Origin: an uncultured Planctomycetota bacterium
GTDB lineage: Bacteria; Planctomycetota; Planctomycetia; Gemmatales; Gemmataceae
NCBI GenBank assembly: GCA_963849325.1
Contig: CAWKHF010000012.1
Location: forward strand, 320,001-384,000
Length of the DNA stretch: 64,000 nt
Reading direction: 5' to 3'
The notes under the pieces are model-generated. The model saw only the letters and a program-made list of their open reading frames with translations. It was not told the origin of the DNA and did not search any database. The position numbers were made by a program, and so were the translations under genes. This document shows, one piece after another, positions 8,129 through 53,271 of this stretch; within the stretch, counting starts at the first letter, position 1, and each line of letters starts with the position of its first letter.

Positions 8129-8173
8129 GCTGTCGTCTCCGTCGCACTCCGCCGCAGGCGGCTGGGTTGGATC

Positions 8174-8776: not shown

Positions 8777-8779
8777 GGC

Positions 8780-9519
8780 CTAGCCCTGCCATTGCTTGAC
8801 GATGCTGAGCAGGGCGATCGCCGACGACCACACGACGCCGGCCAGCCCCGCCGTCACGCCGGTCATGGCCAGTCCCCTTCCGGCCAGGTGTGCCTTGCCG
8901 TCGATCTGCCGCAACGCCAGCCAACCGAGGACCAGCTCGCCGCTCGCCAGGACCAGGGCGATCAGACAAAATACCAGCGCCACGACGACCCCATTCTCCA
9001 GGGTCATGTAGACACCGATGGCCATGAAGGTCAGGAACAGGCTGACCACGGTGCTGACCAGAGCGAGGATGAAGGCGAGGAGGGCGAGCGGCGCCAGGCG
9101 GGCCGGCCGACTCAGGCCGCGGACGCGGAAGTTCTTGCACGGCCCGCACAGTGTCTGCCCTTGCAATGCGACCACACAGGCGGAGCAAAACGAGGCGTGG
9201 CAGGCGTCGCAGGTCGCTTCCCTGGGCGTCTCGTCGTGGTTGAGACAGTAAGCGGGGTTGGGACGGTGTCGGGCGCGCACGCGGCGCGGCGGCAAGGCTT
9301 CCGGCTCGGGCCAATCATCCTCGGCGGTCGGCCGGGGGTGCGCGGCCGAGACGACGGCGGCATCGGCTGGGCCTCCTCCGGTTCCGGCTCGGGGACCGTG
9401 CTCGACCACGGCACGCGATTGCCGTGGCCACATTCGCAGAAAACGAGCGTGCCGGACAGGTGCTCGGCCCGGCCGTGGCGCTTTCCGCATTGCTTGCAGG
9501 CGAACCAAATATGTCTCAT
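8780..9519 (-). CDS. Zn-ribbon/B-box zinc-finger membrane protein (DUF4190-like C-terminus); one frameshift; start codon supplied by the integrated element
   Basis: MRHIWFACKQCGK...FCECGH joined by a frameshift to CLNH...CDACHASFCSAC...CGPC and TM helices ending GRGLAMTG. Confidence 0.75.
9490..9507 (+). repeat. attL core direct repeat TTGCTTGCAGGCGAACCA
   Basis: Identical to 19116-19133. Confidence 0.9.
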
Positions 9520-9522
9520 AAT
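9494..9522 (+). promoter_or_regulatory. Putative sigma70 promoter of the integrase overlapping attL
   Basis: TTGCAG-N17-CATAAT; SD AAGGAGG at 9545-9551 before ATG 9558. Confidence 0.5.
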
Positions 9523-9557
9523 AGATCGTCCTAGCCGCTCCCGAAAGGAGGAATAGA

Positions 9558-11216
9558 ATGGGCGACATGCCAAGACGCGCGTACTCCTACCTTCGGTTTT
9601 CCCACCCCAAGCAGGCTACCGGGGACACCATCCGAAGGCAAGAAGAATGGACCGCGAGCCTGTGCCGGCGGCACAGCTGGTATCTCGATGACACCCTACG
9701 CTTTGCAGACAAGGGGAGGTCCGCGTTTCACGGCGGACTCAAGGCGCTAGGGCAGTTCCGCGACCTGGTGCGACGCGAACGCATCGCGCCCGGCTCGGTG
9801 CTCGTCGTGGAGGTGCTCGACCGCATCTCCCGCGAGGAGGTTGATGATGCTTACGACATCTTCCGAGAGATCATCCGGGCCGGCATATGGATCGCTACGC
9901 GGGAACCGGAGCGCATCTATACCCGCGAGACGTGTGCTGGGAACATGCTCAATCTGCTGGAACCGCTCTTCATCTTTGCACGTGCCCACGATGAGAGCCG
10001 TGCAAAGTCTATGCGTATCCGGGAGGCGTGGGTGCATCAGCACCGAAAAGCGAGAGAGGAAAAGCAGCCGATCCAATCGCGGCCCCCTTGGTGGCTAAGG
10101 AAGGGGCAGCACGGTTATGAGTTGATCCCAGAGCACGCCGAGGCGATACGGCAGATGCGAACGCTCTGCCTATCCGGGCACGGGTACACCCAGACCGCAG
10201 GGGAATTGGCCCGGCGGCTGTTTCGCCCGCCCGGACGGAACTGGTGTATCGAGACCATCCGAAGTACGCTGAAATCTCGTCGCACGCTCGGCGAGCACCA
10301 GCCGGGACACAAGATCAAAGGCCGGCTGGTGCCGGACGGACCACCGATCCAGGGATACTACCCGACTATCTTCACTCCGGAGGAGTGGGAGGCCATACAA
10401 GGGGCGATCCAGCGCAGACAACGCAACAAGCCGGGACGGCCAGCGAAGGAATGCGCCAACCTCTTTACCGGGTTGGTATTCGAGGCGAATTCCCGGCTAC
10501 CTATGTCAAAGGGGTCCGCACGGCCGCAGCATGGGGGGAAGAAATACAACAGCCTCAAGTGTAGGAACGCTTATTATGGGATGCCGCTCTGCCGCGTTCC
10601 CTACGAGTCGCGTAGGGGACAGCCGGGATTTGAGGGGTGCGTGTTAGACACCATCGCGATGCTACGTCCCCAGGACGTGCTTGACGACGAGCGGCGATCC
10701 GACGAGCGGGAGCACCGCATCGACGCACTGACCAAACGTGTAACGGCCCTGGCACATCGCCGGGGACAACTGCAGGCGGCGGCAGCCGACCCAGAGCAGG
10801 ACGCCGCAGACATTCTACCAGCCCTGGCGACAGTACGTCGGGAGTTGGAAACGGCGGCGAAGGAGTTGAATGCCCTCAAGCTCGAAAGCCAGACAGGCCG
10901 GGCGGAAGCGCTAGCAGAGTGCCAGACGCTACAGGAACTGCGGCAACGCGCCCAGGGCGAGGAGCGGCAGGAGTTAGACCGCCGCATCAAGGCGGCGCTA
11001 CCGTCGATCATGGAATCCATCTGGATACAGTGCCAGAGAGTATCTACCCGGCATCAGATCGTACACATCCAGATATGGCTACACAGCGGCTCCATGCGCT
11101 ATGTGCAGATGCTGCCACCGAACCTCCACGGCGTCAAGCCGTGGCAGCTGGAGGAACACGACCTACGCAAGGGGCATTATGTAGGCGACGCTACAAATAT
11201 GGCCCAACCGGCGTAG
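9558..11216 (+). CDS. Large serine recombinase (resolvase + recombinase domains + coiled coil)
   Basis: AYSYLRFSHPKQATGDTIRRQ catalytic Ser motif, DKGRSAF, LVVEVLDRISRE, ESRAKSMR, YYPTIFTPEEW, NLFTGL. Confidence 0.93.
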   Translation: MGDMPRRAYSYLRFSHPKQATGDTIRRQEEWTASLCRRHSWYLDDTLRFADKGRSAFHGGLKALGQFRDLVRRERIAPGSVLVVEVLDRISREEVDDAYDIFREIIRAGIWIATREPERIYTRETCAGNMLNLLEPLFIFARAHDESRAKSMRIREAWVHQHRKAREEKQPIQSRPPWWLRKGQHGYELIPEHAEAIRQMRTLCLSGHGYTQTAGELARRLFRPPGRNWCIETIRSTLKSRRTLGEHQPGHKIKGRLVPDGPPIQGYYPTIFTPEEWEAIQGAIQRRQRNKPGRPAKECANLFTGLVFEANSRLPMSKGSARPQHGGKKYNSLKCRNAYYGMPLCRVPYESRRGQPGFEGCVLDTIAMLRPQDVLDDERRSDEREHRIDALTKRVTALAHRRGQLQAAAADPEQDAADILPALATVRRELETAAKELNALKLESQTGRAEALAECQTLQELRQRAQGEERQELDRRIKAALPSIMESIWIQCQRVSTRHQIVHIQIWLHSGSMRYVQMLPPNLHGVKPWQLEEHDLRKGHYVGDATNMAQPA

Positions 11217-11357
11217 GCAACTGACCGCGAGCGCACAGTCGGCGTAAGCATCGGGAGGCCCGGAAAACCGCCGGGCCTTCGCCATCTCGGCGACCCAGGA
11301 ATCCCCATCCCAGAAGAAGCCGAACGAAGAGAGGACCACGAAGCAACCGCCAAGCAT
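11163..11357 (-). CDS. Small hypothetical protein, convergent with and overlapping the integrase 3' end
   Basis: SD GAGGGG before ATG 11357; FFWDGDSWV..AKARRF. Confidence 0.45.
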   Translation of the reverse strand: MLGGCFVVLSSFGFFWDGDSWVAEMAKARRFSGPPDAYADCALAVSCLRRLGHICSVAYIMPLA

Positions 11358-11628
11358 GATGCACCCCCTCGGTAGCAATCATGCACGCGCCACACCGCGT
11401 TTTCGTCACCACATCCTACCAAGCCCAACCAGATTCTCAGGACCAACGCCGGTAACTGTCAAGCAAGGGTAAGAATCCGCAACGCTGGAGCACTCAACCG
11501 CACGACACGGCCTGCCCTAACAACCGGGCTTTCCACACGCTTGTCCGCAACTATCAGTTTGCACCCGACCGGGTAGGTTGTAGTCTTGGTGAGTCCTGAA
11601 CGCTCCCTTACCCACGGCAGAGGTTGAC

Positions 11629-11865
11629 ATGAAACCAAAATTGCTGACCATCGCCGAGGCGAGCAAGAGACTAAACGTGTCCGGCACCACGCTACGGCGG
11701 ATGATCCGCACCGGCGAATTCCCGCCGCCCGTTCGGCGGAACAGCCGCTGGGTCCGTGTCCCGGCATCGGACATCGAAAACTACCTGACCAAACTGGCGG
11801 AACGCCGCCAGACCGAGCAACCCCGACACCAGGCCGACACCACCGGCCGCCAATTGGAGACATGA
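11629..11865 (+). CDS. Excisionase/AlpA-like helix-turn-helix protein (likely recombination directionality factor)
   Basis: LLTIAEASKRLNVSGTTLRRMIRTGEFPPPVR...WVRVPASDIENYL; SD GAGG. Confidence 0.85.
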   Translation: MKPKLLTIAEASKRLNVSGTTLRRMIRTGEFPPPVRRNSRWVRVPASDIENYLTKLAERRQTEQPRHQADTTGRQLET

Positions 11866-11868
11866 ACC

Positions 11869-13114
11869 ATGAAAGCCCGCGTTTTGAAAGCCTTCGACGA
11901 TTGCAAGGCCGGCGACATCATCGACGTGCCGCGAGCCACGAGCAATTTCGCCGTGCAGAGAGGCGATTTGGAGGAAATCAAGGACGCTGAAACCCTACTC
12001 GCGCAAAAGGTCCGTCGCGCGATCGAAAGGCGCACGATCAGGAAAAAAGTCAGGTCGCTGGAGAGGCCCGCGTTGAGCTTCGGCCAGTTCCTGACCCTGC
12101 TAGCCAAGAGTGGAGGCCGCGACTTCCCCGCGCTCGCCCAGAAGGCGGCGCTGAACGAAGCGTCTGGGATCGAGGGCGGTTATCTCGCGCCACAGGGCTT
12201 CGCCAAAACTATTTTCCAGGCCAGCGAGCGGGGCCGAATCCTGCGCCGGAGCTACCCTATTCCCCACGAGCCACCGTGAAGAGTTAATCCCCTTGTGGGA
12301 TATGACAACTCCACAGACGGCCGGCACAACGCCGTTCTTCGGCGGGCTGAAATTGCAGTGGTACGAGGAAGGAGTCGAACCGGCCGAAAGTGAACCGGCG
12401 ACCAAGCAGCTGGCGATGGTCCCGAACTATCTAGGCGCGCTGGTGTTGGCCTATAACGCTTGGCTCGCGGACGCCGCTCGAGGGACCGTAGAAGCGTGGC
12501 TCTTGGCCCTGTTCGGAGAAGCCGTGGCGTGGTACGAGGAATACGGCTTCCTCCAGGGCAAGGGGGCGGGCCAACCGCTCGGCATCCTCAACAGCGGCGC
12601 AACCATCAACGTCAGCCGCGCTGTCGCCGGCGACATCGAGTTCGCCGACATTGGCGGGATGCTCAACAAGCTACTTCCGGAGTCCATCAATCGCTGTTTC
12701 TGGATGTACTCGCCGACCTGTCAAAGCGCCCTGATGCAACTCAAGGACGGCGCGAATCGGGCCGTGATGCTGCAAGTCGGAGCGACGCCCGCCGGACGCG
12801 GACAGTGGACCATCGCCGGAATCCCTGCTTATCCGACCGAGAAGTTGCCAGCCCTAGGGACCAAGGGAGACCTCGTACTCATCGACCCGCGCTGGTATGC
12901 AATCAGTGACTTCATAGCCGAGGAGGGACAGCCGGCGGGCGGCGGTCGTAGCCTAGCCGTAAGTTTCTCTGGCGAGGCGAGTCAGACGGTCTTCACCAAG
13001 AACCAGACGGTCTTTATGATTTCACAGCGCCTCGACGCACGGCCGGTTATCGACAGCCCCATCACCTTGCAGGACGGCGTGACGCAGGTGTCGCCGTTCG
13101 TGGCCCTTAACTAA
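11869..13114 (+). CDS. HK97-fold phage major capsid protein (~414 aa once one extra C near 12262-12265 is removed)
   Basis: GGYLAP, WYEEG..AESEP, FLQGKGAGQPLGILN, LMQLKDG, GIPAYPTEKLPALGTKGDLVLID, FTKNQTVF..QRLDARP, SPFVAL. Confidence 0.88.
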
Positions 13115-13240
13115 GACATTTGGGCTCCGCGAACACGGCGAGGCGACGGATTGCCTAGCCGTGGAGTCGCGCCACGGTGATGCTGAACCTTTTCGTGCAA
13201 TCCACATCGAAAACTACCCGCAAGCCTTGAGGGAGAAGAC

Positions 13241-14215
13241 ATGAGCAGCCTGGCCGACGAAATCATTGCCGCGATGGAAGCGGGCGGAACCAAGAAGGAA
13301 CCCGCAACGTTCGACGAGGTAGACGCTTTCCATCTCCAAAACGAGGCCGAACAAGTGTTGAAGTACCTCCCGCTACTCGGACAAAGCGGCTACCTCGTCG
13401 AGGGCTGGTCGCACCTACTCGCCGGCTTCCCCCGCGTCGGCAAGTCCGAATTACTCTACGCCTGCATGGTCGAATGGTTACGAGCGGGCCAGACCATTCT
13501 CTACTTCACCGAGGAGGGCCGTGAGCTATGGCGGCAACGACTTCAGCGCCAACGAGTACCCGCCGAGGGATTACAACTGGTGTTCGCGCTCGGTGGCAAG
13601 TCCCTGGACCTCCTAACGCGGATGAGGAAGAGTGGGGAGCCTATCGTTGTGATCGACACCATCCGCAGCCTGCAAGTCCTGCCGGCCGACGAGAACGACA
13701 ACGCCGCCGTCGCCCGCGCCCTCGAACCCTGGGTGACTGCCGCACGCGAGATGAGCAAGACCCTGATTCTCAGCCACCATGCCCGCAAGGGAGGCGGCGA
13801 GCACGGCGAGGGCATCTCCGGCGGTCATGCCCTCTTCGGGGCCGTGGACGTGGCCCTGGAAGTCTGCCGCAGTACGACACCGGCTCGGCGGATCATCAAG
13901 GCCCATGCTCGCCTAATCCAGCCCGCCGACCTCCTCTACGAGCGGGACGAGGATGGCAGCCTGGCCGCTCTCGGCGATCCCAGCGGCGTCGGCCTGGCGG
14001 AAGTCGGCCGCCGCATCCTCGACGTGATGGATCACCAATGGGCCAAGACGGCCGACGTACACGACCGCCTGGAGGAACCCCGGCCCAGCGCGGAACAACT
14101 TCGCCTCGCTCTGGCCGCCGAGGCCCGCTGCGGCCGCCTGGAACGCGATCCGCCCATCAGCGTCGCCAACGTCCAGGGCAAGACCACTCGCTGGCGGCTC
14201 CTCGGAGGCGAGTAA
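13241..14215 (+). CDS. AAA/RecA-fold ATPase (RepA/SF4 helicase-like) with C-terminal wHTH-like region
   Basis: Walker A AGFPRVGKSEL, Walker B IVVIDTI, LILSHHARKGGG, ISGGHALFGAVD. Confidence 0.82.
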   Translation: MSSLADEIIAAMEAGGTKKEPATFDEVDAFHLQNEAEQVLKYLPLLGQSGYLVEGWSHLLAGFPRVGKSELLYACMVEWLRAGQTILYFTEEGRELWRQRLQRQRVPAEGLQLVFALGGKSLDLLTRMRKSGEPIVVIDTIRSLQVLPADENDNAAVARALEPWVTAAREMSKTLILSHHARKGGGEHGEGISGGHALFGAVDVALEVCRSTTPARRIIKAHARLIQPADLLYERDEDGSLAALGDPSGVGLAEVGRRILDVMDHQWAKTADVHDRLEEPRPSAEQLRLALAAEARCGRLERDPPISVANVQGKTTRWRLLGGE

Positions 14216-14332
14216 CTTCACTTCCCACCTATAGGAGAGACCCCCTTGTATGTGAGGTGAAGAAAAGTGAAGCGAAGCGTTTACGCTTCACTTTCTTCCC
14301 ACAGTCCCTCTCTTAAGGAGGGAAGTTCAGTT
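14214..14332. other. Large imperfect inverted repeat directly after the helicase-like gene (candidate replication origin)
   Basis: AAAGTGAAGCG/CGCTTCACTTT core; outer arms AACTTCACTTCCCACCTATAGGAGAG vs rc AACTGAACTTCCCTCCTTAAGAGAG. Confidence 0.55.
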
Positions 14333-14363
14333 CATCCAGCGCTCGACACCAACCGGAGGCATC

Positions 14364-14606
14364 ATGTCTGAACTGAAAGACGTTGTAAACAAACTGTGCA
14401 AAGAGCTTGACCGGCTCTTCCACACGCCGGACCTCTTGCACCGCGAGCAAGGTTATCCCAATCTAGCCGAACTTCTGGCTAGCATTAACGCAGGCATCCA
14501 CCGAGCCGCCGACGCTCTCGACCGGATGAACCCGCCGCCACAACCGCCGCCGTTCGTGCCGGAGGGCTTCACGGACGCGGAGTTGCTGGCCGGCAAGGTC
14601 AAGTAG
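14364..14606 (+). CDS. Hypothetical protein (80 aa, helical)
   Basis: SD GGAGG, clean ORF co-oriented with the element core. Confidence 0.65.
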   Translation: MSELKDVVNKLCKELDRLFHTPDLLHREQGYPNLAELLASINAGIHRAADALDRMNPPPQPPPFVPEGFTDAELLAGKVK

Positions 14607-15198
14607 TGTCCGTCCGCCGCACTCACGGCCCCAAGCGATGTCGTCCAGGCGTCGTTTCGGGGCCGATTCCTGCACCGCCAGCAGGCCAAGCTGCACCTTT
14701 CCTGTCGTCCCGCTGCACACCCTCGACAAAACCTCCACAACCGGCATCGCAGCCTTTTCTTGTCCATATACCGATCAAATGTTCACTAAAGCGATAAACA
14801 AGAGGAGTGAAGGTAGATCGTGTTGCCGGGATGGCCGCGTTTTCCGGGCTGGGAGGGTAGGTTGCGTCCGGCAGCTGGGAGGCGCGTGCGGGGGTGCGTG
14901 CGGCCCCTGCGCCGCCCTCCGCGTCCCGGCGGCCGTGGCCCGCACGGACGCTCTGGGCGGCTCCGGGCCTACGGTGCGCCGGGACGTATCCGCCGCCCCC
15001 TGCGGCCGTCTGTCCCGCTGCCCTCACGGCGACGGACAGACGGCCTGCGGGCGGCTCGGTGGTGCGTGTGTGTGTGTGTGTGCGGGGCTGTACGCCCCCT
15101 GGTGTCGCGCAGCGACACCGCCGTCGCTGCGCGACGGCTGCCGGCCCTTACAGGCCGGCGGGGGCTGCGGTGTGCGTGCTGCGGGACACATCGCGGTG

Positions 15199-15404
15199 AG
15201 ACCCTGCCTTGCGTGCCCGGCTGCCTGCTGCTGCCGGCCCAGGTGGTGCGCGACATCACGGCTGTTCGTGTTGATGGCCGGCAGCAGCAGGCAACTCGGG
15301 CTCGTGTGGGGCAGACCGTGCCTTGCGGGCGCACCGGCATCTGGCTGCGGCCCAGGTAGTGCGCGACATCCCGGTTGTTCGAGCTACGGCCGCAGCCAGA
15401 TGCC
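15199..15404. repeat. Two tandem 114-bp-period structured units: conserved leader and loop, different perfect stems
   Basis: Stems 15222-15239/15276-15293 (18 bp) and 15336-15352/15388-15404 (17 bp); loops 26/29 identical. Confidence 0.85.
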
Positions 15405-15543
15405 ACCACGTCTACATTCGGCAACCGCATCCATGCGGGGTTCGAGGCGGGCAGGACGCCCGCCAGCTGGCCCATGACGACGAGGATGCGGCTCCAGCAG
15501 ACCCAAGGCCACGGGTGGCCTTGGGCTGCTGAGCTTCCTACGG

Positions 15544-15757
15544 ATGCAGGGACGCAGCCTGCGGAGCATTGCCGAGGAGGAGGGGGTGAGTCAGGAACAG
15601 GTACGCAAGGATTCTCGATCCTGCTGTCAACCAGTTGACACCTGACCTACCACCCGCCCAGGTGCTCGGCAAGGACGGCAAGGCGTATCCGGCGGACAAC
15701 TCCGCACGCAAGCCCGCGCTACCCGGTCCCGTCGTGGACAACGCCGCCGCTCCGTAG
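15544..15757 (+). pseudogene. HTH fragment with GKDGKxYP motif (resembles the C-terminal part of phage ParB-like proteins); one frameshift
   Basis: MQGRSLRSIAEEEGVSQEQVRKD / LDPAVNQLTPDLPPAQVLGKDGKAYPA; absent from the ORF track. Confidence 0.6.
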
Positions 15758-16463
15758 TCGGCTCCTCAGCATTTTCTTATTTATAAGACCGCTAGCACCC
15801 GTGCTTGCCTATCTTCGTTCCGTTCCCCCACGTCATCACGCCCAGCCTTCCCGCTGTCACGCCCTCTCGTGTTCACCGCGTCGCGTCATGGGCCATCCTG
15901 GCCCATAGTCGCGTCGCGGCGGGCCATCCTGGCCCTCAAGCTGTGGGCGGGTGCCCCGCCCCTGTTTGTCTCCGCGTCACTCGCGGTCGGGTTGTGACGG
16001 TGTATCGTGACCCTACCCGTCCTGCTGCTACCGCCGTGCCCTAGCAGATGCTTACCCGGTTTCCACGGCGTCGTAAGACAGACTAGCCTATGAGGTCCGC
16101 AGAGCACACCCGGCCAGACAGAAGCATTTTGAGGTCGTTCGTGTCGTACTGGCTGACGAGTCGTCACGTCCTCCCCCGCCCGCGACAGATTCCGCCAGTG
16201 TCGCGGGCGGCCTTTTTGGCCCCCGCGACACTGGCGGCTTCCGCCCAGGGGGGCGGAAGTGCGGTAGTGCGTAACGGTGTGTCGTGCTGTGACGCTCAGC
16301 ACGTCGTCTCGCCCTCCCCCCCGCGTAAGAACGCCGCCGGAGCGCGGGTTGTCCCCGCGTCCGGCGGCGTCGCAGCCCTTGCAGGCTGCGAAGAAGCTAC
16401 CAGGCGACGTCGTGACAGCCCTATTCGATGCTGCGAGGTTGACGGGTCATCATGCGCTGCTCT

Positions 16464-16509
16464 TTTCTTTTCTTTTCTCTTTTGAGTACAAAAGAGAAAA
16501 GAAAAGAAA
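16464..16509. repeat. Perfect 21-bp pyrimidine/purine palindrome with 4-nt loop
   Basis: TTTCTTTTCTTTTCTCTTTTG-AGTA-CAAAAGAGAAAAGAAAAGAAA. Confidence 0.9.
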
Positions 16510-16587
16510 CAAAAGAAAAGAGAAAACAAAGACAGACACTCACACGCCCCAAGGGACAGGATGACGGTCAAACCCGTGAAATGATCG

Positions 16588-16760
16588 CGTTTTGTCCAAG
16601 TGCCCTAGGTGCTGTTGTAGCAGGTATGTCAAGGTAGGTTGATTAAAAGCAATTTTGCTGTCAGAGAAGTTGTACGGTCAATGAAACTAGGCAAAATTGC
16701 TTTTAATCATTCCACCTTGACTACCTGCTATTACATCATCAGGGGCACTTGAACAAAACG
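16588..16760. repeat. AT-rich ~70-bp imperfect inverted repeat with 32-bp spacer
   Basis: Arms 16588-16658 and 16691-16760, about 60/71 matched by hand, innermost 19 bp perfect. Confidence 0.9.
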
Positions 16761-17069
16761 GGTTAGACTTGCACGGGGAGGCGAGTGCGACCCGCCATTA
16801 CACGCCGGGTCGGAGAGGGAGGAGGAGGAGGAGGAGGAGTGGGGTGGGGGTGGCGCGGGCCGCAAGCGGCTCATATGTTCATGTGTTCATAGTTCATCGT
16901 GGGTCGTTGGCCGGTCTCCCCGCTGGGTGCCGCTGCGCTGGGCTGGGATGGGTGGTTACGGTCGGGGGCTGGGCGGCGGCCGCCTCCGGCGGCCGCCCGG
17001 TGTCTCCTTGTGCTCTCCGCCTTGTCCGTGTTTTTGTGCGGTTTTTGCGGGTTTTTCTGCATTTTCCTC

Positions 17070-17099
17070 TTGACAGCTACATGTCGTTTGTGGTAGAAT
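17070..17099 (+). promoter_or_regulatory. Near-consensus sigma70 promoter of the element's cargo operon
   Basis: TTGACA-N18-TAGAAT with TGn extended -10; helically phased T-tracts upstream. Confidence 0.75.
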
Positions 17100-17177
17100 C
17101 GCTGTCTGCAATGGCGATGGGGGGCGGTTGGCCCCGCCCCCCATCTAACCCGAACCCCGTGCTAGCGGAGTCGAGTC

Positions 17178-17507
17178 ATGTCTAAGGGTATCCGTTCGTC
17201 GTCGGTCTGTCTATTCCACATTACCCCCCGCCGCAATCTCCAATCGATCTACAAGTTCGGCTTGCTGCCGTGCTTCGCTCGGGGCGTGTTGCGTGCCGTC
17301 TGGCTGTGCTCGGCTTCCCGCCGCCGCTGGGCCGCCGTCCACGTCGAGGACCAAAACTGGACTTCGGACATCGTTGTCATCCGCCTCATCCTGCCGCGTG
17401 CCTGGCTCCGCCGCTTCCGTCGCGGCATCTGGCATTGCTCGCAGCCGATCCCCCCCTCGTGCATTGTGTCCGTCTCCGCCCCGTCCCCGCTGTCCCCCGC
17501 CGCCTGA
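17178..17507 (+). CDS. Small ADP-ribosyltransferase-fold protein (KptA/Tpt1 C-domain or DUF952-like)
   Basis: LFHITPRRNLQSIYKFGLLP, AVWLC, VVIRL, GIWHCSQPIPPSCI; SD GGAG. Confidence 0.6.
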   Translation: MSKGIRSSSVCLFHITPRRNLQSIYKFGLLPCFARGVLRAVWLCSASRRRWAAVHVEDQNWTSDIVVIRLILPRAWLRRFRRGIWHCSQPIPPSCIVSVSAPSPLSPAA

Positions 17508-17564
17508 ACTCTTGGCCCGCCCGATCCGCCGCCCAGCGGATCGGCCTTCTTGGAGTATTCGGAT

Positions 17565-17936
17565 ATGTCTACTCGTTCATATCGTCTGTGCTTGCGCATC
17601 GACAACGGCGTGGAACGCCACTACGCCGTCCGCCCGCTGGCAGCTGCCGACCTGGAAACGCCGTTCCTGTGCGGCTATGCCCTAACGGAACGCACGCAAA
17701 ATTCACACCCGACCTACCATGTCCGCCTTGCCGCCGATGGCATTGTCAACTGCTCGTGTCCGCAGTGGAACAAGGCCGAGACCTGCAAGCACGCCGACGC
17801 CCTCGTGGCCGCCGGCCTGCTGCCGGTGCGGCTCGTCGAAGTGCTCGCCGCCACCCGCCACTTGCTCGACCTCGCCGAAGCGAAGATCGCCGCCATGCCC
17901 AAGCCCCGATCCCGCAAGAAGAAGACGGACAACTGA
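17565..17936 (+). CDS. SWIM zinc-finger protein
   Basis: YHVRL..CSCPQWNKAETCKH (CxC...CxH); SD GGAG; basic tail. Confidence 0.8.
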   Translation: MSTRSYRLCLRIDNGVERHYAVRPLAAADLETPFLCGYALTERTQNSHPTYHVRLAADGIVNCSCPQWNKAETCKHADALVAAGLLPVRLVEVLAATRHLLDLAEAKIAAMPKPRSRKKKTDN

Positions 17937-17988
17937 TCGTCGCCACGCGGACCGGCCGCAAGGCCGGTCCCCTCGACACGGAGGAAAC

Positions 17989-18342
17989 ATGGCCCGACAC
18001 CGCAGACCGAACACCGCCGACGACCGCCGCCAGCTACTGGCCGCTGCCGCCGCCGTCCTCGGTGTCGCCGCCGACGCAGTTATTCTCGTCGCCGGCGCCG
18101 TCGAGATCGTCCGCCCCGAGCCGCAGCCGGTTCGTCCTGGCCGACTGCCCGAGGGCATGAGCGCCTACGATGCCGCCATTCTGGGGGCGCTCGCTGACAG
18201 GCCATTGTCAGCCCAGCAGATCGCCCACCGCAGCGGACACCGCCACAACAGCTACTTTCGTGGCCGTCTCGCCGCTCTTGTCGAGGCAGGCCACGTCCGA
18301 CAAACCCGCCGAGGGTACAGTCTCGGCGGGCCTGGCAGGTAG
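17989..18342 (+). CDS. Winged-helix DNA-binding protein
   Basis: AILGALADRPLSAQQIAHRSGH..SYFRGRLAALVEAGHV; SD GGAGG. Confidence 0.7.
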   Translation: MARHRRPNTADDRRQLLAAAAAVLGVAADAVILVAGAVEIVRPEPQPVRPGRLPEGMSAYDAAILGALADRPLSAQQIAHRSGHRHNSYFRGRLAALVEAGHVRQTRRGYSLGGPGR

Positions 18343-18416
18343 CAGCTGGCAATCGTCTACTTGTTCCTGCCGGCGGGGCGGGTATCCTCGCCGGCATCAC
18401 TCACAGGAGGTTTCCC

Positions 18417-18635
18417 ATGCTAACCATCGAACGCCGCGCCTTCCTCGAAGCGATCGTGCTTGCCGCCCTCATCCCCAACTGGCAGCGAACCAACCCCTTC
18501 GAGCCACCCGAGCAGACCCGGCAACGCCTTGCCGTCGAGGCGCTCAAGATTGTCGATTCGTTCCTACGCGTGACCGGCGACGCGAACTTGCCGCCCCTCG
18601 GCGTGCCGGCCAACGACCCCAGCGTTCCCTTTTGA
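18417..18635 (+). CDS. Hypothetical protein ending NDPSVPF
   Basis: SD CAGGAGG, clean ORF. Confidence 0.65.
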   Translation: MLTIERRAFLEAIVLAALIPNWQRTNPFEPPEQTRQRLAVEALKIVDSFLRVTGDANLPPLGVPANDPSVPF

Positions 18636-18708
18636 ACGATCCGCTCCGCGCCCTCGGCGACGTTCGCCCAGGGCCGGGCGCTTCCCATCGCCCACGGAGG
18701 TTTGCACC

Positions 18709-19038
18709 ATGAAGAAGCTCGTTGCCGTCGCCGTAGCCCTCGCCGCCCTGGGCGCTGGTCGCGCCGAGGACAAGACCGCCACCCAGAAGCCCGACGAGCC
18801 AGCCCCGGTCATCGTCAAGACCCAGCTGCCCCGGTACTTCAAGCAGCTCGGCTTGACCGACAAGCAGCGGAAGGAGGTCTACAGGGTCCGTGCTGGCTAC
18901 GCCGCCAAGATCGCCAAGCTCAACGAGGAGATCGCTACCTTGCGGTTGAAAGAGAAGGGCGAGGTCGAGGGCGTTCTGACCGAGGCTCAACGGAAACGCC
19001 TCCAGGAGATGCGGGCCGGCTCCGATTCCAAGAAGTGA
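18709..19038 (+). CDS. Secreted small helical protein, Spy/CpxP (LTxxQ)-like
   Basis: Signal peptide; LGLTDKQ and VLTEAQ motifs; SD GGAGG. Confidence 0.75.
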   Translation: MKKLVAVAVALAALGAGRAEDKTATQKPDEPAPVIVKTQLPRYFKQLGLTDKQRKEVYRVRAGYAAKIAKLNEEIATLRLKEKGEVEGVLTEAQRKRLQEMRAGSDSKK

Positions 19039-19115
19039 CACACCAGGCATCGACCGGCCGGGGCAACTCGGCCGGTCCCCATAAGAGGGCAATGATGAGA
19101 ACAAAGTCCCAAACC

Positions 19116-19133
19116 TTGCTTGCAGGCGAACCA
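19116..19133 (+). repeat. attR core direct repeat TTGCTTGCAGGCGAACCA
   Basis: Identical to 9490-9507. Confidence 0.9.
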
Positions 19134-19135
19134 GA

Positions 19136-19924
19136 TCATGATGTTTTCTCGCTCGAACGCACGGCGTCACCGGGACGTTCGCCGAGGACCGCCGCCATTT
19201 GCAGCACGAACTTCTCGGCGCTCTCGTACTCGCCCGGCGTCAGGTCGAGGCGCTTCTCGAAGAACTGGGCGGCGGCCTGGAACAGCCGGGCGCGTTCGAG
19301 GACGCGCAGCTGATCGCGGCGCAAGCACAAGTCGAGCAACGTCTGCTTCTGCTCGCGGTCGAGCTGGACGAGGCGTTGACGGAGCAGCGCCAACCGCTGA
19401 CGGTCGGCCTCGCTGCGCGCGTCGGGCAGGGCCAGGATCGGCTGGACGTTGCGCTCGACGTGAACCACGAGGGTATCCGCGGCCAGGTCGCCGAGGCGGC
19501 GCTGCTCGCGATTGCCGGCGGCGACGGCGAAGCCGAGCAGTCCCGGACCCAGAGGCAGCGGCACGGGCAAGCTGTCGGCGACGCGCAGCAGATTGCGAAC
19601 CGCCGACTGAAAGAAGGTGATGGACGTGCCGCGCCACTGGATGACGCGAATGCCGAGCAGGTACTTGCCCGGTGTTTGTCCGTGCCAGAGCCATTCAAAA
19701 AAGATGAAATAACCCCACAGGACCACGAACTGTCCGATCACGATCACCGCCATGCCCAGGCCGGGCCGGCCGAGCGTGAGGACGCCACCGACGACGGCGC
19801 CCATGACGATCAGCAGCAGCACCGCCAGCGCATCGATCAGCCAGGCCAGGAAGCGCGAACCCAGCCCGGCGACGCGGTAGCGGAACGGCACTTTCTCGGT
19901 GGTGAGCACCTCATGGCGGATCAC
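19136..19924 (-). CDS. RDD family membrane protein
   Basis: AGLGSRFLAWLID, GQTPGK..GIRV, RRLGDLAADT; GTG start overlaps the SpoIIM stop. Confidence 0.9.
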   Translation of the reverse strand: MIRHEVLTTEKVPFRYRVAGLGSRFLAWLIDALAVLLLIVMGAVVGGVLTLGRPGLGMAVIVIGQFVVLWGYFIFFEWLWHGQTPGKYLLGIRVIQWRGTSITFFQSAVRNLLRVADSLPVPLPLGPGLLGFAVAAGNREQRRLGDLAADTLVVHVERNVQPILALPDARSEADRQRLALLRQRLVQLDREQKQTLLDLCLRRDQLRVLERARLFQAAAQFFEKRLDLTPGEYESAEKFVLQMAAVLGERPGDAVRSSEKTS

Positions 19925-20919
19925 GCCTGGTCCTCCCGCGCCGCCGCTCGGCCCCAGCCGAGCAACAGAATGTAGGCCAGAAACAGCAGGGCGAAGACGG
20001 CGGCGACGGCCAACTTCAATCCCTTGCCGAGAAACCAGTCCGGCGCCCGCGCCACGCCAGCCTCCAGACACGCAGCCACGGCCAGAAGCGGCACACAGCC
20101 GAATAGCATCAGCACCGACTGCTTGCCTAGGCGAGCCAACTCCTCGCGCCGCGGCCACGGCCGCGCTCGCAGGAAGCCCTGCGCCAGCACGAAGCCGGCC
20201 GCTCCGCCGATGAGGCAAGCCGGGATCTCCAGCACGCCATGCGGCAGGATGCCGGTGGCGTAGGCCGTCAGCTGATGGGCCTCGGCGAAGACGGAGCCGA
20301 GAGCGCCCAGAAGAACGCCATTATAGAACATCAGCCAGGCCGTGCCGAGTCCGAGCGTGATGCCCAGGGCGAAGGCGACCAGGCTGACGCTGACGTTGTG
20401 CGTGAACAAAAAGCTCGAAAACGCGGTCAGGTCATCCGTCGTGTACATGGGCGCGGCCTGCTCCTCGCCCTCGGCCGGCGGCTGGATGGTCGGCATGTCC
20501 GTGGGCAGCAGGTAGGCGCGGGCAACCTCCTTGTCGTAGGTGCAGGCCAGGTAGCCGAAGACGGCGCCCGCCGCGAACAGCAGCGTGGCCAACAGGAAGT
20601 GCGGCAGGTAACGACGAAAGACGGCCGGGTAGCCCCAGAAGAGATAACGCAGCAAGCCCCGCACCTCGACGCGCGTTTTGCCATAAATGGCGAGGTAAGC
20701 GCGGGCAACCAAATCATTCAAATAGCGCTCGGTGGCCTCGCCGCTGACGAAGGTCTGGGCCTGGTTTAAGTCCGAGGCGGCGCGGCGATAGAGGCGGCCG
20801 AACTCGACGGCTTGCTCGTCGTCCAGTGAGGCCAGACCGCTGCCCTCGACACGCTGAAGGATTGCTTCGAGGCGTTTCCAGTCGGGGCGGCGCTGCCGGA
20901 GAAACGTCGCCAAATCCAT
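19921..20919 (-). CDS. Stage II sporulation protein M family membrane protein
   Basis: LYRRAASDL, FTHNVSV, NGVLLG, ILPHGVLEIPA. Confidence 0.9.
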   Translation of the reverse strand: MDLATFLRQRRPDWKRLEAILQRVEGSGLASLDDEQAVEFGRLYRRAASDLNQAQTFVSGEATERYLNDLVARAYLAIYGKTRVEVRGLLRYLFWGYPAVFRRYLPHFLLATLLFAAGAVFGYLACTYDKEVARAYLLPTDMPTIQPPAEGEEQAAPMYTTDDLTAFSSFLFTHNVSVSLVAFALGITLGLGTAWLMFYNGVLLGALGSVFAEAHQLTAYATGILPHGVLEIPACLIGGAAGFVLAQGFLRARPWPRREELARLGKQSVLMLFGCVPLLAVAACLEAGVARAPDWFLGKGLKLAVAAVFALLFLAYILLLGWGRAAAREDQA

Positions 20920-20955
20920 ACCAGTCACCTCATCGCGGACCACGAAGACAATTCA

Positions 20956-21098
20956 TTCACCACGGAAAACACGGAAAGCACGGAAAAAAGACAAAAAGAG
21001 AGGAAAAGAATAAAAAGTGCCGCCTCTCCTTTGACTCTTAAGTCTTCCCAGTTCTTCTTTGTCTTTTTTCCGTGTTTTCCGTGCTTCCCGTGGCGGAA
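20956..21098. repeat. MITE/REP-like element with (CACGGAAAA)-type terminal inverted triplets, copy 1
   Basis: CACCACGGAAAACACGGAAAGCACGGAAAA ... TTCCGTGTTTTCCGTGCTTCCCGTGG. Confidence 0.75.
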
Positions 21099-21107
21099 AG
21101 GTTTTTC

Positions 21108-22462
21108 TTACATCCGTACCCCTGTTTTCAGAGCCAGGTAGCGATTCACGGCGTCAATCGTCAATCGATCCGGCACGGTATCGAGCACCAGGACGCCCTG
21201 TCGTTCGAGGCTACGTAACAATTCGGTGCGTCCATCGAGCAGGTCGCGGGCCACGAGGACGTCATACAGTTCGTCGGCGTCTTCGGGCTGACGAGCGGCC
21301 AATTCCTGCAGAGCCACGTCGGCCACGGCCAGCGTCAGCGGGAGGTGAAAGCGGCGCAGCAGTGCCGCCGCGTCGAGATACTCGCGCGATACTACATCGT
21401 CGAGCATGTCCGTGAAAACCATCGTCAGGGCGCGCTTGGGGTGCTGGGCGATGAGATGGCCGAACGCCTCGCGGTAGTTGACGTAGCACAGCTCCGGCTT
21501 GATGCTGTACAGCGCTTGCAGGAAGCGAGCGTGCTGGCGCGGCCCTTGGCCGGCGGTAAATACAGATGGACCGTGTGCGAGAACACCAGCAGACCGAGAT
21601 TGTCCTGGAACGTCTGGCTGACGTGCGCCAGCATGAGGACGGCGTTGATGGCGTGGTCGAGCTTGGTCAGCGTGCCGACGCGGGCCGCCATCATGCGGCC
21701 AACGTCCAGGCAGAAAAGGATGTCCTGGCTGTGCTCGCTCTCGAAGACGCTGGTGATCGGCTTGTTGTGGCGGGCCGTCGCCTTCCAGCTGACGTGGCGA
21801 TAATCGTCGTCTGGCGTGTAATCGCGGTAATGGCTGAACTCGCGGCCGGTGCCCGGCAGACGCTTGGCTCGATAGCCGCCAGCGCGGACAAGGGTGGTGC
21901 GCACCAGAGCTTCATAGCGGCGCACCTCGAACAGGTTGGGATAGACCTGAACGCCCTCCGCGGCGGGCAGAAGGCGATCGACGCAAGCCAGGCCAAGCGG
22001 ACCCCGGCAGCGCACGGCCACGTCGCCGAAGGCGAAGTTGCCGCGCTCGGTCGGCAAGAGCCGATAGCGAAGGCGAGCCCAGCCGTGGGCCGGCACGTCC
22101 GCGTCCAGGAGCGGCGGCTCGGCCCGGAAGCTCGGCGGCGGCTGATCGCGCAACCGCAGCCGCAAGCGCCGCCGGCCGTGATTTTCGACGACGATCATCA
22201 CGTCGTTGTCCACGCCCAGCGACAGGCGGGCCGGCCGTTCTCGCCGCACGCGCAAACACGCCGGCCGGCTCCTTCGCCGGGCCAACAAAGCATCCAGACC
22301 GAGGAGCAGAAAGATGCCGGCGTCGAAGCCGAACACCAGCCCGCGGACACCCCCGGCGAACTCTCCGGCGTGAGCCAGCGGAAGCAGCGGGAGGACGTAC
22401 CCGGTCAGCCACAGCACCAGGCCGAACAGGAGTAACCAGACCGTCGCGCGCGTCGGGACCAT
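21108..22462 (-). CDS. DUF58 domain protein (vWA-like), frameshifted
   Basis: RGNFAFG, EFSHYRDYTPDDDYRHVSWKATAR, LDVGRMM, VFTD. Confidence 0.88.
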
Positions 22463-22706
22463 CGGCGAAATACTTCCGAAGGAGCATCGAGCTTCCGGGT
22501 ACTTTGTACTTCTCTCGCGCTGGTTTGTCCGTCCGCCAACGTGGCTCGTTCGCTGGCCGCCCCCATCCCCGAACGCCTCCCCCTACCTCCTCGTCCTATC
22601 CTTGATTGTGCCGGCGAACCGTCTACAAAGGATAGGAGGTACAACCAAGGTCCGGCCGAGGACTCGGCTCGCCGCCGCGAGATTATGCCAGGGAGGATTG
22701 CTGGGC

Positions 22707-23336
22707 ATGCCTGATTCCGCCGCTCGTCCCCGACGATCCGGATCGTCCGCGCGCAACGGCGCGGCGGCGAAGACGGTCGATGCCGCGCGCATCGAGGCGG
22801 CCGTCCGCGAAATCCTGCTGGCCGTCGGCGAGGATCCCGACCGCGAGGGTTTGCAAGAGACGCCCGCCCGCGTCGCCCGCATGTACGCCGAAATCTTCTC
22901 CGGCCTGCATGCCGACCCCCGCCTGCTGCTGGCCAAGACGTTCACCCAGAAGTACGACGAAATGGTGCTGGTGCGCGACATCGAGTTCGCTTCGACGTGT
23001 GAGCATCATTTGCTGCCGTTTCTGGGCAAGGCCCACATCGCCTACCTGCCCGCCGGCAAGATCGTCGGCCTGAGCAAGCTGCCGCGCGTCGTCGAGGTGC
23101 TGGCCCATCGGCCGCAGGTCCAGGAACGCATGACGGAAGAGCTGGCCGACCTGCTCATGGAGGAACTCAAGCCGCGCGGCGTCGGCGTCGTGCTCGAGGC
23201 CACGCACACCTGCATGACTATCCGCGGCGTGCGCAAGCCCGGCAGCGTCTGCACCACCAGCGCCATGCGCGGCGTCTTCCGCGAGAACCAGGCCACGCGC
23301 AACGAGCTGATGGCGCTGATCTACGGCCCGCGGTGA
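22707..23336 (+). CDS. folE: GTP cyclohydrolase I
   Basis: GEDPDREGLQETPARVA, CEHHLLPF, GLSKLPR, QVQERMT, HTCMTIRG. Confidence 0.96.
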   Translation: MPDSAARPRRSGSSARNGAAAKTVDAARIEAAVREILLAVGEDPDREGLQETPARVARMYAEIFSGLHADPRLLLAKTFTQKYDEMVLVRDIEFASTCEHHLLPFLGKAHIAYLPAGKIVGLSKLPRVVEVLAHRPQVQERMTEELADLLMEELKPRGVGVVLEATHTCMTIRGVRKPGSVCTTSAMRGVFRENQATRNELMALIYGPR

Positions 23337-23340
23337 TGCC

Positions 23341-24084: not shown

Positions 24085-24123
24085 CCATTACTTCCCCCTG
24101 TGCTGGGGATTATCGAGGTATCC

Positions 24124-53186: not shown

Positions 53187-53271
53187 CGAGCGGCCCCAAC
53201 CGAGCCGCGACCGTTAGAGAGCGGGAGAAAGCACCGCTCTCTAACGGTCGCGGCTCGGTTGGGGCCGCTCG
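53187..53271. repeat. REP-like perfect palindrome (38-bp arms) between convergent genes
   Basis: CCGAGCCGCGACCGTTAG core; related copy at 61617-61670. Confidence 0.85.

Follow-up and report, generated by a model that had tools for sequence, protein, structure and literature searches.

The window, by which we mean the whole 64-kb stretch of DNA that was analysed, carries an integrated element with the following bounds, genes and neighbouring features:

9511–19649: outer island bounds, from flank homology against empty sites in six same-genus genomes
9558–11216, + strand: large serine recombinase, the island integrase (Pfam Resolvase and Recombinase; PHROG integrase, 6e-54)
11869–13114, + strand: HK97-type major capsid gene (Pfam Phage_capsid, 7.5e-23)
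13241–14215, + strand: AAA_25 (RepA/DnaB-like) helicase gene (Pfam AAA_25, 9.4e-15; weak PHROG primase/helicase matches)
14264–14294: 11-bp terminator-like hairpin past the helicase gene, with T-rich tails on both strands
17178–18342, + strand: operon served by the region studied here
17178–17507, + strand: Tpt1/KptA-like minimal ART fold (AF2 pLDDT 88; Foldseek top match 8tg4_A at 1e-4)
17550–17936, + strand: SWIM zinc-finger protein (SWIM in seven of eight members)
17719–18342, + strand: protein with a weak C-terminal HTH (wHTH)

The island is absent from the same site in six genomes of the genus (G177, G107, G136, G038, G224 and G185). Left-flank homology stops at position 9510 and right-flank homology runs from 19650–19665, a coarse estimate of the right edge as this is where the query began. 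At the empty sites of these six genomes the two flanks lie 500–582 bp apart, and since 500–580 bp of 9511–19649 is host spacer that is also present there, the insertion itself measures about 9.6 kb. The capsid gene is split here into two frames (11869–12279 and 12293–13114), suggesting that this copy of the island is decaying; its counterpart in the G107 island is a single 417-aa ORF with 27–30% identity to siphophage capsid proteins. The helicase gene is the immediate left neighbour of our region. It has homologues at 53–65% identity in five other loci, and its profile gave no match to solved structures. Pfam and PHROG matched no terminase, portal or tail family and no RepA_N among the island ORFs, and none of 28 ORFs scanned across the island and its flanks matched a HUH Rep or relaxase family. 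The combination of integrase, replication gene and capsid gene, with no full virion module, is that of phage satellites in the PICI, cf-PICI or PLE sense, and we consider the ~9.6-kb element a probable satellite-like integrative island of Gemmataceae, its satellite status being judged from gene content.

A hairpin-dense, non-coding stretch

Between the helicase gene and the operon lie 2,571 bp (14,607–17,177) with the following features:

14765–14790, + strand: block TACCGATCAAATGTnCACTAAA, conserved with the G107 island (blastn 92% over 26 nt) and collinear with four other blocks
14900–15404: GC-rich (75–79%) hairpin cluster (15004–15045, 15104–15135, 15141–15160, 15222–15293 and 15336–15404, plus (GT)n)
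15541–15712, + strand: relic of a ParB-N + HTH_23 gene (tblastn 6e-08 against an intact 238-aa G193 protein)
16030–16140, + strand: ~80-nt block common to all three genus-g1 islands
16176–16259, + strand: overlapping hairpins on three copies of the CCCGCGACA motif
16331–16391, + strand: nested hairpin followed by a 6-bp hairpin, conserved with the G107 island (blastn 97% over 32 nt)
16464–16509, + strand: 21-bp perfect polypyrimidine/polypurine hairpin with apex G-AGTA-C
16569–16775, + strand: long hairpin "type A", ~200 nt, AT-rich in this window, homologous in loci L071, L072 and L075
16812–16893, + strand: G-rich tract ((GGA)n and G-runs) and three TGTTCA repeats, conserved with the G193 island
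16972–16997: palindrome GGCGGCCGCC-TCC-GGCGGCCGCC, conserved in the window's island and G107, degenerate in G193
17026–17099, + strand: phased T-tracts, then promoter TTGACA-18-TAGAAT with an upstream TG (11/12 matches)
17116–17145, + strand: 5′-leader hairpin with a 12-bp stem and a 6-nt loop

An earlier note on this DNA, made from the sequence alone, had listed ten strong stems and two simple repeats in the region, and all of them were recovered. Perfect stems lie at 15004–15045 (12 bp), 15104–15135 (13 bp), 15222–15293 (18 bp), 15336–15404 (17 bp), 15502–15525 (10 bp), 16331–16370 (11 bp), 16464–16509 (21 bp) and 17116–17145 (12 bp); the complex at 16176–16259 is likewise perfect and the palindrome at 16588–16760 imperfect, and the repeats are (GT)n at 15064–15082 and (GGA)n at 16817–16839. 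Counting stems of at least 10 bp with a loop of at most 60 nt, 18 of the 39 perfect stems of the 64-kb window fall in 14,922–17,145; they make up 12–13 distinct loci in 3.5% of the window. The genome (8.16 Mb) holds 2,260 distinct perfect-stem loci of at least 11 bp, or 0.28 per kb, and its richest 2.5-kb segment is the one starting at 15,001, with 9 such loci against 5 in the next best.

Folding energies compared with dinucleotide shuffles placed this structure far above chance, which disposes of the possibility that the hairpin density is no greater than in shuffled sequence. In a scan of 150-nt windows with 25 shuffles each, 19 of the 30 windows starting at 14,900–17,075 had z ≤ -2 (mean -2.7), against 4 of 43 in the left and 5 of 52 in the right coding flank. 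With 200 shuffles, z was -3.6 on the + strand and -6.2 on the - strand for 14990–15289, -7.5 and -9.2 for 16160–16400, and -13.3 and -15.6 on the two strands for 16580–16770; with DNA parameters 16440–16739 gave -9.6.

The description of the stretch as nearly gene-free also held. Codon-position GC is flat over ~14,720–17,150 and strongly periodic on either side, and none of the seven ORFs of 87–279 aa inside the stretch matched Pfam or PHROG. The ORFs 14820–15359 (179 aa, Arg/Pro/Gly-rich, no periodicity) and 16090–16485 were considered as genes and rejected, as was a 774-codon stop-free frame upstream of the operon in locus L077, which is Ala/Arg/Pro-rich with flat codon GC and is not conserved in strand among islands. 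Alignment to decayed coding genes, which would have been another origin for the stretch, was found only at 15541–15712, the ParB-HTH relic. Likewise 16 related loci, compared as 2,826 stop-to-stop frames, yielded only this relic and short matches at nucleotide-conserved blocks. The share of the island that had been put at a quarter comes to 27% of the ~9.6-kb insertion.

A known RNA family does not account for the region: a scan of 8,000–26,000 on both strands against Rfam 15 (E ≤ 1) came nowhere near any gathering score. Its matches were microRNA-precursor-type look-alikes only, the best of which scored 37.9 bits where the family's gathering score is 211. No tRNA or tmRNA was found in the region. 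Nor are most of its hairpins canonical intrinsic terminators, since among the strong stems a GC-rich stem followed by a T-run occurs only at 16176–16210; a weaker T-rich tail follows 15945–15961.

All of the 11 related islands, from two Gemmataceae genera, carry an ORF-poor, hairpin-bearing stretch of low periodicity, 0.8–2.8 kb long, upstream of the same operon. The structure exists, exceeds chance by a wide margin, does not code for protein and has partly been maintained in evolution.

In the left half, the hairpins 15222–15293 and 15336–15404 form a tandem ~114-nt duplicate whose loops are 91% identical and whose stems are unlike yet both perfect. At the syntenic position, the G193 island carries a GC-rich group of hairpins comparable to the 14900–15404 cluster. 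Most left-half hairpins have no aligned counterpart in other islands, so any selection on them is conjectural. The ParB-HTH relic keeps residues 119–142 and 168–193 of the G193 protein, in two frames, and has lost the N-terminal half; the intact gene in G193 (L044:10953–11669) lies in the opposite orientation. Within the shared ~80-nt block, TTTCCA-18-TAGCCT (16060–16089) may be a promoter-like element, a candidate that matches at 7 of 12 positions and was missed by the consensus scan. A candidate 14-codon micro-ORF on the minus strand of 16,080–16,140, traced by eye, has its stop at one shared TAG in three islands but lacks an ATG in G193.

Conserved hairpins, promoter and leader of the right half

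The first stem of the 16176–16259 complex is followed by T5 and is terminator-like on the + strand; a related GCCCGCGAC hairpin is present twice in G193. The apex G-AGTA-C of the hairpin at 16464–16509 recurs on differing stems in 13 hairpins, all 13 on the + strand, in 9 of the 11 islands. The TGTTCA triplet further right may resemble the octamers of the P4 origin.

In the long type A hairpin the GTCAAGGTAG and CCACCTTGAC arms are conserved, as is an asymmetric internal loop. A covariation check on four related islands, with controls that ignore the kinship of the sequences, supported its pairing: 29 of 64 pairs show compensatory change, against only 4–9 in slid controls, and 92.6% of alignment cells are paired; none of 500 shuffles equalled either figure. 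Within this one element and its four related sequences, + strand wobbles were G·T in 12 cases and A·C in 1. A covariance model of type A matches the window at 147 bits, and model R1, run over 151 family genomes, found the window, one training member (G111) and only three weak matches, in G051 and G028. Template switching can keep palindromes symmetric without any RNA function. The G·T excess, and a G-AGTA-C apex that always faces the same way, point to a function as a single + strand, which would fit a structured RNA or an ssDNA signal.

At the right end, the T-tracts recur with a period of 10–11 nt and are replaced by A-tracts in G107. TTGAC is invariant across the aligned islands, and the promoter at 17,070 is the only + strand promoter inside the region to pass the consensus scan. 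Downstream come the leader hairpin, the conserved motif CCCGAAACC, a ribosome site GGAG and the start codon ATG (17178). The promoter is conserved in all 11 islands. In each of these the leader hairpin forms at a matching position (-27 to -33 kcal/mol), on at least six different stem sequences in all, a result of per-sequence folds, as MAFFT/RNAalifold alignments mis-registered the stems and under-called the hairpin. The last ~110 bp of the stretch is, as far as its motifs go, an ordinary sigma-70-type promoter with a predicted 5′ UTR. Between the first two genes of the operon, hairpins with U-rich tails occur in all eight islands examined, an arrangement that fits a possible control by attenuation. 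At least two hairpins of the region are conserved structures, and the functions that we discuss for them are proposals.

A proposed control region and its alternatives

The region is a composite, with a promoter and leader on the right, the long and apex hairpins in the middle, and island-specific hairpins and a dead ParB-HTH gene on the left. The reading that we tentatively prefer, with slightly less than even confidence, is that the stretch is a non-coding control region, with structures that function on the + strand and most likely in the form of RNA. The phased T-tracts should bend the DNA ahead of the sigma-70-type promoter, which would drive the ART-fold/SWIM/wHTH operon, and the operon transcript would begin with the conserved RNA hairpin ~30 nt before the start codon. 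The long and G-AGTA-C hairpins, 400–700 nt upstream, would work as a folded + strand, since they show compensatory change, lie in one direction only and admit G·T wobbles while avoiding A·C. We further suppose that the + strand from ~16.06 kb rightwards may be transcribed into a highly structured leader or ncRNA, whose hairpins would terminate, insulate or process transcripts and keep the ART-like operon silent while the island is integrated, with read-through only once a helper or island factor acts on the hairpins. The replication origin of the island may share the region. Against an RNA function, nine stems are perfect and most fold about equally on either strand, which is the look of DNA-level palindromes, and z is better on the - strand for 16160–16400 and 14990–15289. 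The earlier note had proposed a large structured ncRNA or an ssDNA signal region. It is supported in part, by the real and partly maintained structure and the apparent + strand function; no known RNA family was matched and, among the island ORFs, no ssDNA-making enzyme, and the ParB-HTH relic (~170 bp, 15541–15712) and the promoter/5′ UTR end (~110 bp) are parts that fall outside it.

One alternative, somewhat unlikely in our view, is a double-stranded DNA replication origin, a packaging region or both, in which the palindromes would serve as cruciforms or as sites for dimeric proteins; the winged helix of the helicase, the ParB-HTH protein and the wHTH protein are candidate binders and the AT-rich 350 bp a candidate unwinding element. 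The region begins 390 bp past the AAA_25 helicase gene, and origins adjoin rep genes in staphylococcal islands. The segment 16,430–16,790 has 44–46% GC in a genome of 66% GC and about 11 AAAAG/CTTTT pentamers that are near-absent elsewhere in the window. However, both segment and pentamers occur only in the window's island, the AT-poorest spot in the other 10 islands is usually the promoter T-tract zone or another, non-syntenic place, and the islands have no iteron set in common. A DNA-level role would also agree with the many perfect stems that fold on both strands and with the phased A/T tracts kept regardless of strand in G107; a symmetric duplex site would not be expected to show a 12:1 excess of G·T or an apex that keeps one orientation. 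Linkage to the helicase does not hold across the family, as tblastn with the window's helicase found none in eight genus-g50 loci (one has an AAA_24 gene instead), where the stretch persists, linked to the operon and not to a helicase. By analogy, the non-coding region of PLE is required for replication and carries iterons (PMC7145576).

Some of the same observations could be read as ssDNA signals, the long hairpin being an sso primed by the RNA polymerase of the host, or a packaging or transfer signal, on an element with a + strand ssDNA stage; we consider this quite improbable. The hairpin, ~200 nt long, keeps to one orientation and admits G·T pairs, and its apex and a mid-stem motif are conserved. 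The ssoA of rolling-circle plasmids is a comparably large (~160-nt) fold of ssDNA whose action depends on orientation; RNA polymerase primes it, and it bears the conserved RSB motif (PMC5703833). Both would be imperfect, oriented hairpins of ~160–200 nt with conserved motifs in a variable stem. The motifs here are instead the GAGTAC apex and the GTCAAGGTAG arms, and the RSB and CS-6 motifs, the latter being the sso apex motif TAGCGT, are absent from the region sequence. No HUH Rep, relaxase or other ssDNA-producing enzyme, and so no rolling-circle Rep, was matched among the island ORFs, the capsid gene is HK97-type, like those of double-stranded DNA phages, and a conserved leader RNA hairpin lies just 400 nt away.

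The G-AGTA-C apex also tops a REP-like host repeat family of 47 copies, which often stand as inverted pairs with ~81 bp between them, and a single Y1-transposase-like (Y1_Tnp-like) gene is present in the genome; Y1-type transposases act on ssDNA hairpins. These features, which would also suit the ssDNA reading, resemble REP/BIME repeats with their RAYT transposases, and the common apex hints at a hairpin-recognising factor shared with the host family. One could then see the whole stretch as a pile-up of host REP/MITE-type repeats inserted into the island. The genome does hold at least two palindromic repeat families, the second being an AT-rich ~150-bp palindrome with 78 matches and one copy at 20,945–21,105, and the hairpin at 16464–16509 has the REP apex. 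This explanation is nonetheless hardly credible and largely refuted, because the 2,571 bp match nothing else in their own genome save their own palindromes on the opposite strand; the hairpins of the region are single-copy, on stems unlike the REP stem.

It is improbable, too, that the stretch is a mostly functionless spacer of gene decay whose palindromes arose by template-switch mutation, with only the promoter and leader functional. A dead ParB-HTH gene does lie mid-region in a decaying copy with its capsid gene in two frames, most left-half hairpins lack an aligned homologue in other islands, and perfect stems suggest a recent origin. Yet a similar-sized stretch is found in 11 of 11 islands of two genera, it retains collinear conserved blocks and two families of hairpins, comparison with the 2,826 frames from the family loci turned up no further protein remnant, and its hairpin density is unmatched in other intergenic DNA of the genome. 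As further sources of the palindromes, a serine-recombinase attP was rejected on finding the same architecture in islands with tyrosine integrases, and a centromere (parS array) on finding that the palindromes all differ in sequence.

We also speculate on a new class of large, highly structured non-coding nucleic acid that only planctomycete phage satellites would possess. Each island would have a type A or type B long hairpin and a G-AGTA-C-capped hairpin. A hairpin-binding factor of the host or of a helper would recognise the folded + strand, as RNA or as ssDNA from a hypothetical single-stranded stage, and so set off replication, packaging or expression of the ART-like operon, whose products would modify nucleic acids. 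We hold this proposal to be rather unlikely as a whole.

Relation to known systems

Such a region had been thought unusual for a compact satellite. The 18-kb Vibrio PLE provides a precedent, with a 2.7-kb non-coding region that contains its origin and four direct-repeat families serving as iterons for a RepA_N initiator (PMC7145576). An abundant small RNA, SviR, is reported from an ORF-free PLE intergenic region (bioRxiv 10.1101/2022.04.08.487710). The region studied here and that of the Vibrio cholerae element are alike in being ORF-free over ~2.5–2.7 kb, repeat-rich and inside a small integrative satellite. They differ in that here we found no RepA_N and no common iterons, and many unique inverted repeats, two with covariation; the sequences have no similarity and the host phylum is another.

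Leader and attenuator hairpins are known from phage and satellite operons, as in lambda nut/boxB and the CI RNA immunity of P4. The present operon shares with these systems a conserved 5′-leader hairpin and terminator-like hairpins between genes, but neither an N, Q or Psu-like protein nor an RNA family that fits was identified, and its loops are unrelated.

To our knowledge, hardly any work exists on the phages and mobile elements of Planctomycetota. A full-text search found no paper joining "phage satellite" with "Planctomycetes", and Gemmataceae was unmentioned among the full-text matches listed on prophages or integrative elements. The analysis delineates a family of small islands with a capsid gene, present in two genera of Gemmataceae, with a maintained non-coding region that makes up a quarter of each island and two structured elements outside Rfam, the leader hairpin and the ~200-nt long hairpin, that are both testable. 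If the hairpins were indeed helper-phage sensors or origins, they would offer a way to track down the helper and a basis for genetic tools in bacteria that are hard to manipulate. A metagenome scan with the protein encoded at 17178 retrieved a single locus, which agrees with the G107 island at every one of 1,734 nt and so adds no new member.

Coding content and hairpin density

The stretch at 14607..17177 lies in a block that we read as an insertion of about 9.6 kb (right edge bracketed only), since its flanks are only 500-582 bp apart in six same-genus genomes. It makes up 27% of this island, in line with the quarter estimated in an earlier note. Gene calls around it are ORF and GC3 heuristics:

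9558-11216, left of the region: large serine recombinase
11869-13114, left of the region: HK97-type capsid gene, here in two frames (136 aa and 273 aa)
13241-14215, left of the region: AAA_25 helicase
left of the region, with these three genes: 80-aa ORF
from 17178, + strand: operon gene 1, minimal ADP-ribosyltransferase (ART) fold of about 100 aa
within 17178-17936, + strand: operon gene 2, SWIM zinc-finger protein (7/8 members)
+ strand: operon gene 3, weak C-terminal HTH

The capsid gene of G107, another genome of the window's genus, is a single 417-aa ORF; the two frames here are either a frameshift in the window's copy or a separate scaffold-like gene. The island ORFs gave no match to terminase, portal or tail families, and from gene content we infer that the island is satellite-like. 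The product of operon gene 1 yields a confident model (pLDDT 88) with a fold nearest to the NAD lobe of Tpt1/KptA RNA 2'-phosphotransferases (Foldseek 1e-4; weak profile match).

Codon-position GC is flat over about 14,720-17,150 and periodic to either side, and ORFs inside the region have no Pfam or PHROG match, in agreement with the nearly gene-free character described earlier. The "HTH fragment" at 15541-15712 matches, in two frames, residues 119-142 and 168-193 of an intact 238-aa ParB-N + HTH_23 protein of G193 (also of the window's genus), whose gene is oriented opposite to the window's relic. A search of 2,826 stop-to-stop frames of at least 50 aa from 16 related loci against 14,216-17,177 found no protein remnants beyond this relic, short matches falling at nucleotide-conserved blocks only. 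In these comparisons alignment to a decayed gene is confined to 15541-15712, which indicates that the rest of the region is not decayed genes.

All ten stems and both simple repeats listed in the earlier note were found in the sequence. The 64-kb window contains 39 perfect stems of at least 10 bp with loops of at most 60 nt, 18 of them (12-13 distinct loci) within 14,922-17,145. Genome-wide (8.16 Mb), distinct loci with a perfect stem of at least 11 bp number 2,260 (0.28 per kb), and the 2.5-kb window from position 15,001 holds the genome maximum of 9 such loci, the next best having 5. In a coarse scan against dinucleotide shuffles z was at or below -2 in 19 of 30 150-nt windows of the region, versus 4/43 and 5/52 in the flanks. 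With 200 shuffles, three sub-stretches gave z of -3.6 to -15.6 on either strand, so that the folding energies lie far below those of shuffled sequence, as the proposal of a structured region had implied.

Conserved structures in related islands

Operon genes 1 and 2 have homologues in G107 and G193, two islands of the same genus, and in eight islands of a second Gemmataceae genus, g50 (L071-L078), all relatives being MAG contigs. Upstream of the operon 11/11 islands carry 0.8-2.8 kb with low codon periodicity and perfect stems, the window's copy being the richest in the latter; the stretch is a conserved feature of the island family. DNA of the window, G107 and G193 is mostly unalignable yet retains five to six short collinear blocks; among the g50 islands 1-2.5 kb align at 70-86% identity, in a mosaic. 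The closest partner of the L071, L073, L075 and L077 upstream regions switches block by block (L071 is nearest to L077 in some blocks, to L073 in others), which points to recombination among g50 copies; four of the copies sit in one genome, G167. Five of the eight g50 loci have a Phage_integrase match, and in several islands of this genus the operon extends to a tyrosine integrase gene, preceded, where seen, by a wHTH gene. The G193 assembly is broken inside the homologous non-coding region, the helicase gene standing at one contig end (end of L044, G193:C297) and the remainder on another (start of L048, G193:C301); repeats may be the cause. The structures of the region are as follows:

14900-15404: GC-rich cluster (75-79% GC) of five hairpins
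16030-16140: block conserved in three islands of the window's genus
16176-16259: hairpin complex 3' of that block, first stem with a T5 tail
16331-16370: hairpin after this complex, conserved with G107
16464-16509, + strand: hairpin with 21-bp stem and apex G-AGTA-C
16569-16775, + strand: type A long hairpin, about 200 nt, with homologous hairpins at equal relative place in L071, L072 and L075
16812-16893: G-rich tract and TGTTCA repeats, common to G193
16972-16997: conserved palindrome
17070-17099, + strand: promoter TTGACA-18-TAGAAT with TG upstream, 11/12 positions matching
17116-17145, + strand: leader hairpin, 12-bp stem, in the 5' leader

Two hairpins of the 14900-15404 cluster are a tandem duplicate, with loops 91% identical and stems different yet perfect. 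The 16030-16140 block includes a possible promoter, TTTCCA-18-TAGCCT.

The covariation looked for across homologous islands is present in the type A hairpin, where it rests on four sequences: 29 of 64 pairs show a compensatory double change (RNAalifold) and 92.6% of cells are paired, values reached by 0/500 shuffles, while shifted partners in a sliding control yield 4-9 double-change pairs. Wobbles on the + strand are G·T 12 versus A·C 1, and, in an alignment read by eye, the internal loop beside the GTCAAGGT/ACCTTGAC helix is asymmetric, AG facing CTCC or TCC, and has one constant orientation. The G-AGTA-C apex tops the long hairpin itself in L071, L072 and L075 and a separate hairpin in L073, L076, L077 and L078, with five such in L074; in total 13 hairpins in 9/11 islands bear it, on the + strand without exception, and none was found in the G107 and G193 islands. 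The G·T excess, together with an apex and an internal loop that each keep one orientation, speaks for a long hairpin functioning as a folded + strand and not as a symmetric duplex site. Such a strand could be RNA or ssDNA.

In the seven islands without type A (G107, G193, L073, L074, L076, L077, L078) this position is taken by a different giant palindrome. An arm of CCAACCATCGCCGTCGCC type is common to six of them (type B, near-perfect, arms 26-45 bp), and the G193 palindrome is loosely similar. Type B palindromes lie at the following places, each in an island that lacks type A:

L049:11202-11322
L073:10904-11024
L076:5821-5941
L078:6390-6510
L074:11500-11620
L077:11560-11680

The leader hairpin folds in 11/11 islands, equally far from the start codon in each and with an energy of -27 to -33 kcal/mol; its stem occurs in at least six different sequences, set between conserved flanks (AATGG or AGTGG 5'; CTGGTCCCAAACCT and GGAGG 3'). 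These are per-island folds, as MAFFT mis-registers the stems and hence permits no formal covariation count. TTGAC of the promoter is invariant across aligned islands, and the position of the hairpin downstream of this conserved promoter leads us to read it as acting as RNA. T-tracts phased by 10-11 nt precede the promoter; since G107 has A-tracts instead, the property conserved there would be DNA curvature and not a transcript. Terminator-like hairpins with U-rich tails lie between operon genes 1 and 2 in 8/8 islands examined, suggesting that RNA hairpins are a habit of the element family.

Candidate functions of the region

We tentatively favor a non-coding control region with structures acting in the + strand transcript, where leader, insulator or attenuator hairpins would gate the ART-like operon. 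The leader hairpin 3' of its promoter and the U-tailed intercistronic hairpins speak for such a role; against it, the + strand shows no consensus promoter upstream of 17,070, the perfect stems can fold from either strand, and in two sub-stretches the minus strand folds better. A double-stranded origin or packaging region would have a precedent in PLE, an 18-kb Vibrio satellite with a 2.7-kb non-coding region that holds the origin (PMC7145576), and a helicase gene adjoins the region here. We nevertheless consider it rather unlikely: the AT-rich pentamer segment is found in the window's island alone, no iterons are common to the islands, and the window's helicase has no tblastn match in the eight g50 loci. 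PLE also makes an abundant sRNA from an ORF-free intergenic region (bioRxiv 10.1101/2022.04.08.487710), and an origin could likewise lie beside a regulatory RNA here; the candidate functions do not exclude one another. PLE is the nearest precedent and shows that a compact satellite can have a long non-coding region, contrary to the earlier note, which called it unusual. PLE has iterons, whereas the region here has unique inverted repeats, a giant hairpin in either of two forms, and a leader with covariation. A full-text search found no literature on phage satellites in Planctomycetes.

Of the structured ncRNA or ssDNA signal first proposed, a folded + strand is favored, for the long hairpin, by the 12:1 wobbles; the region has no Rfam family match, which leaves a known ncRNA family unsupported. 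Signals of the sso type appear quite improbable: the folded + strand of the long hairpin is as compatible with ssDNA as with RNA, but no ssDNA-producing enzyme was found among the ORFs scanned. CS-6 is the apex motif of sso-type origins. The likeness to ssoA draws on PMC5703833. Largely functionless decay, with the ParB-HTH relic on one side and the compensatory changes on the other, seems improbable. Host repeats we find hardly credible for a stretch that is single-copy in its own genome and has no copies of the REP-like family inside it.

Repeat families elsewhere in the genome

That family emerged from the genome's 381 perfect hairpins of one kind (loop 4 nt, stem at least 9 bp), 49 of which have the apex G-AGTA-C; 47 of these 49 share the stem CCCCTCTCCCCCG plus flanks. 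Copies are often inverted pairs about 81 bp apart (e.g. G000:C12:266139 and 266219 in the window's own genome). A search with the core pattern gave 95 matches in G107, from 1 to 5 in three g50 genomes, and none in G193. The window's genome has one Y1_Tnp-like gene, at G000:C2:573643-573867. An AT-rich palindrome of about 160 nt at window 20945-21105 (z = -7.7), upstream of a SpoIIM gene, belongs to a high-copy family; matches number 78 in its own genome and 72-76 in two others of the genus. Two 38-bp perfect hairpins (53187-53271, 63231-63316) and one of 15 bp (61617-61670), with CCGAGCCGCGACCGT common to the first and third, may be another repeat family.
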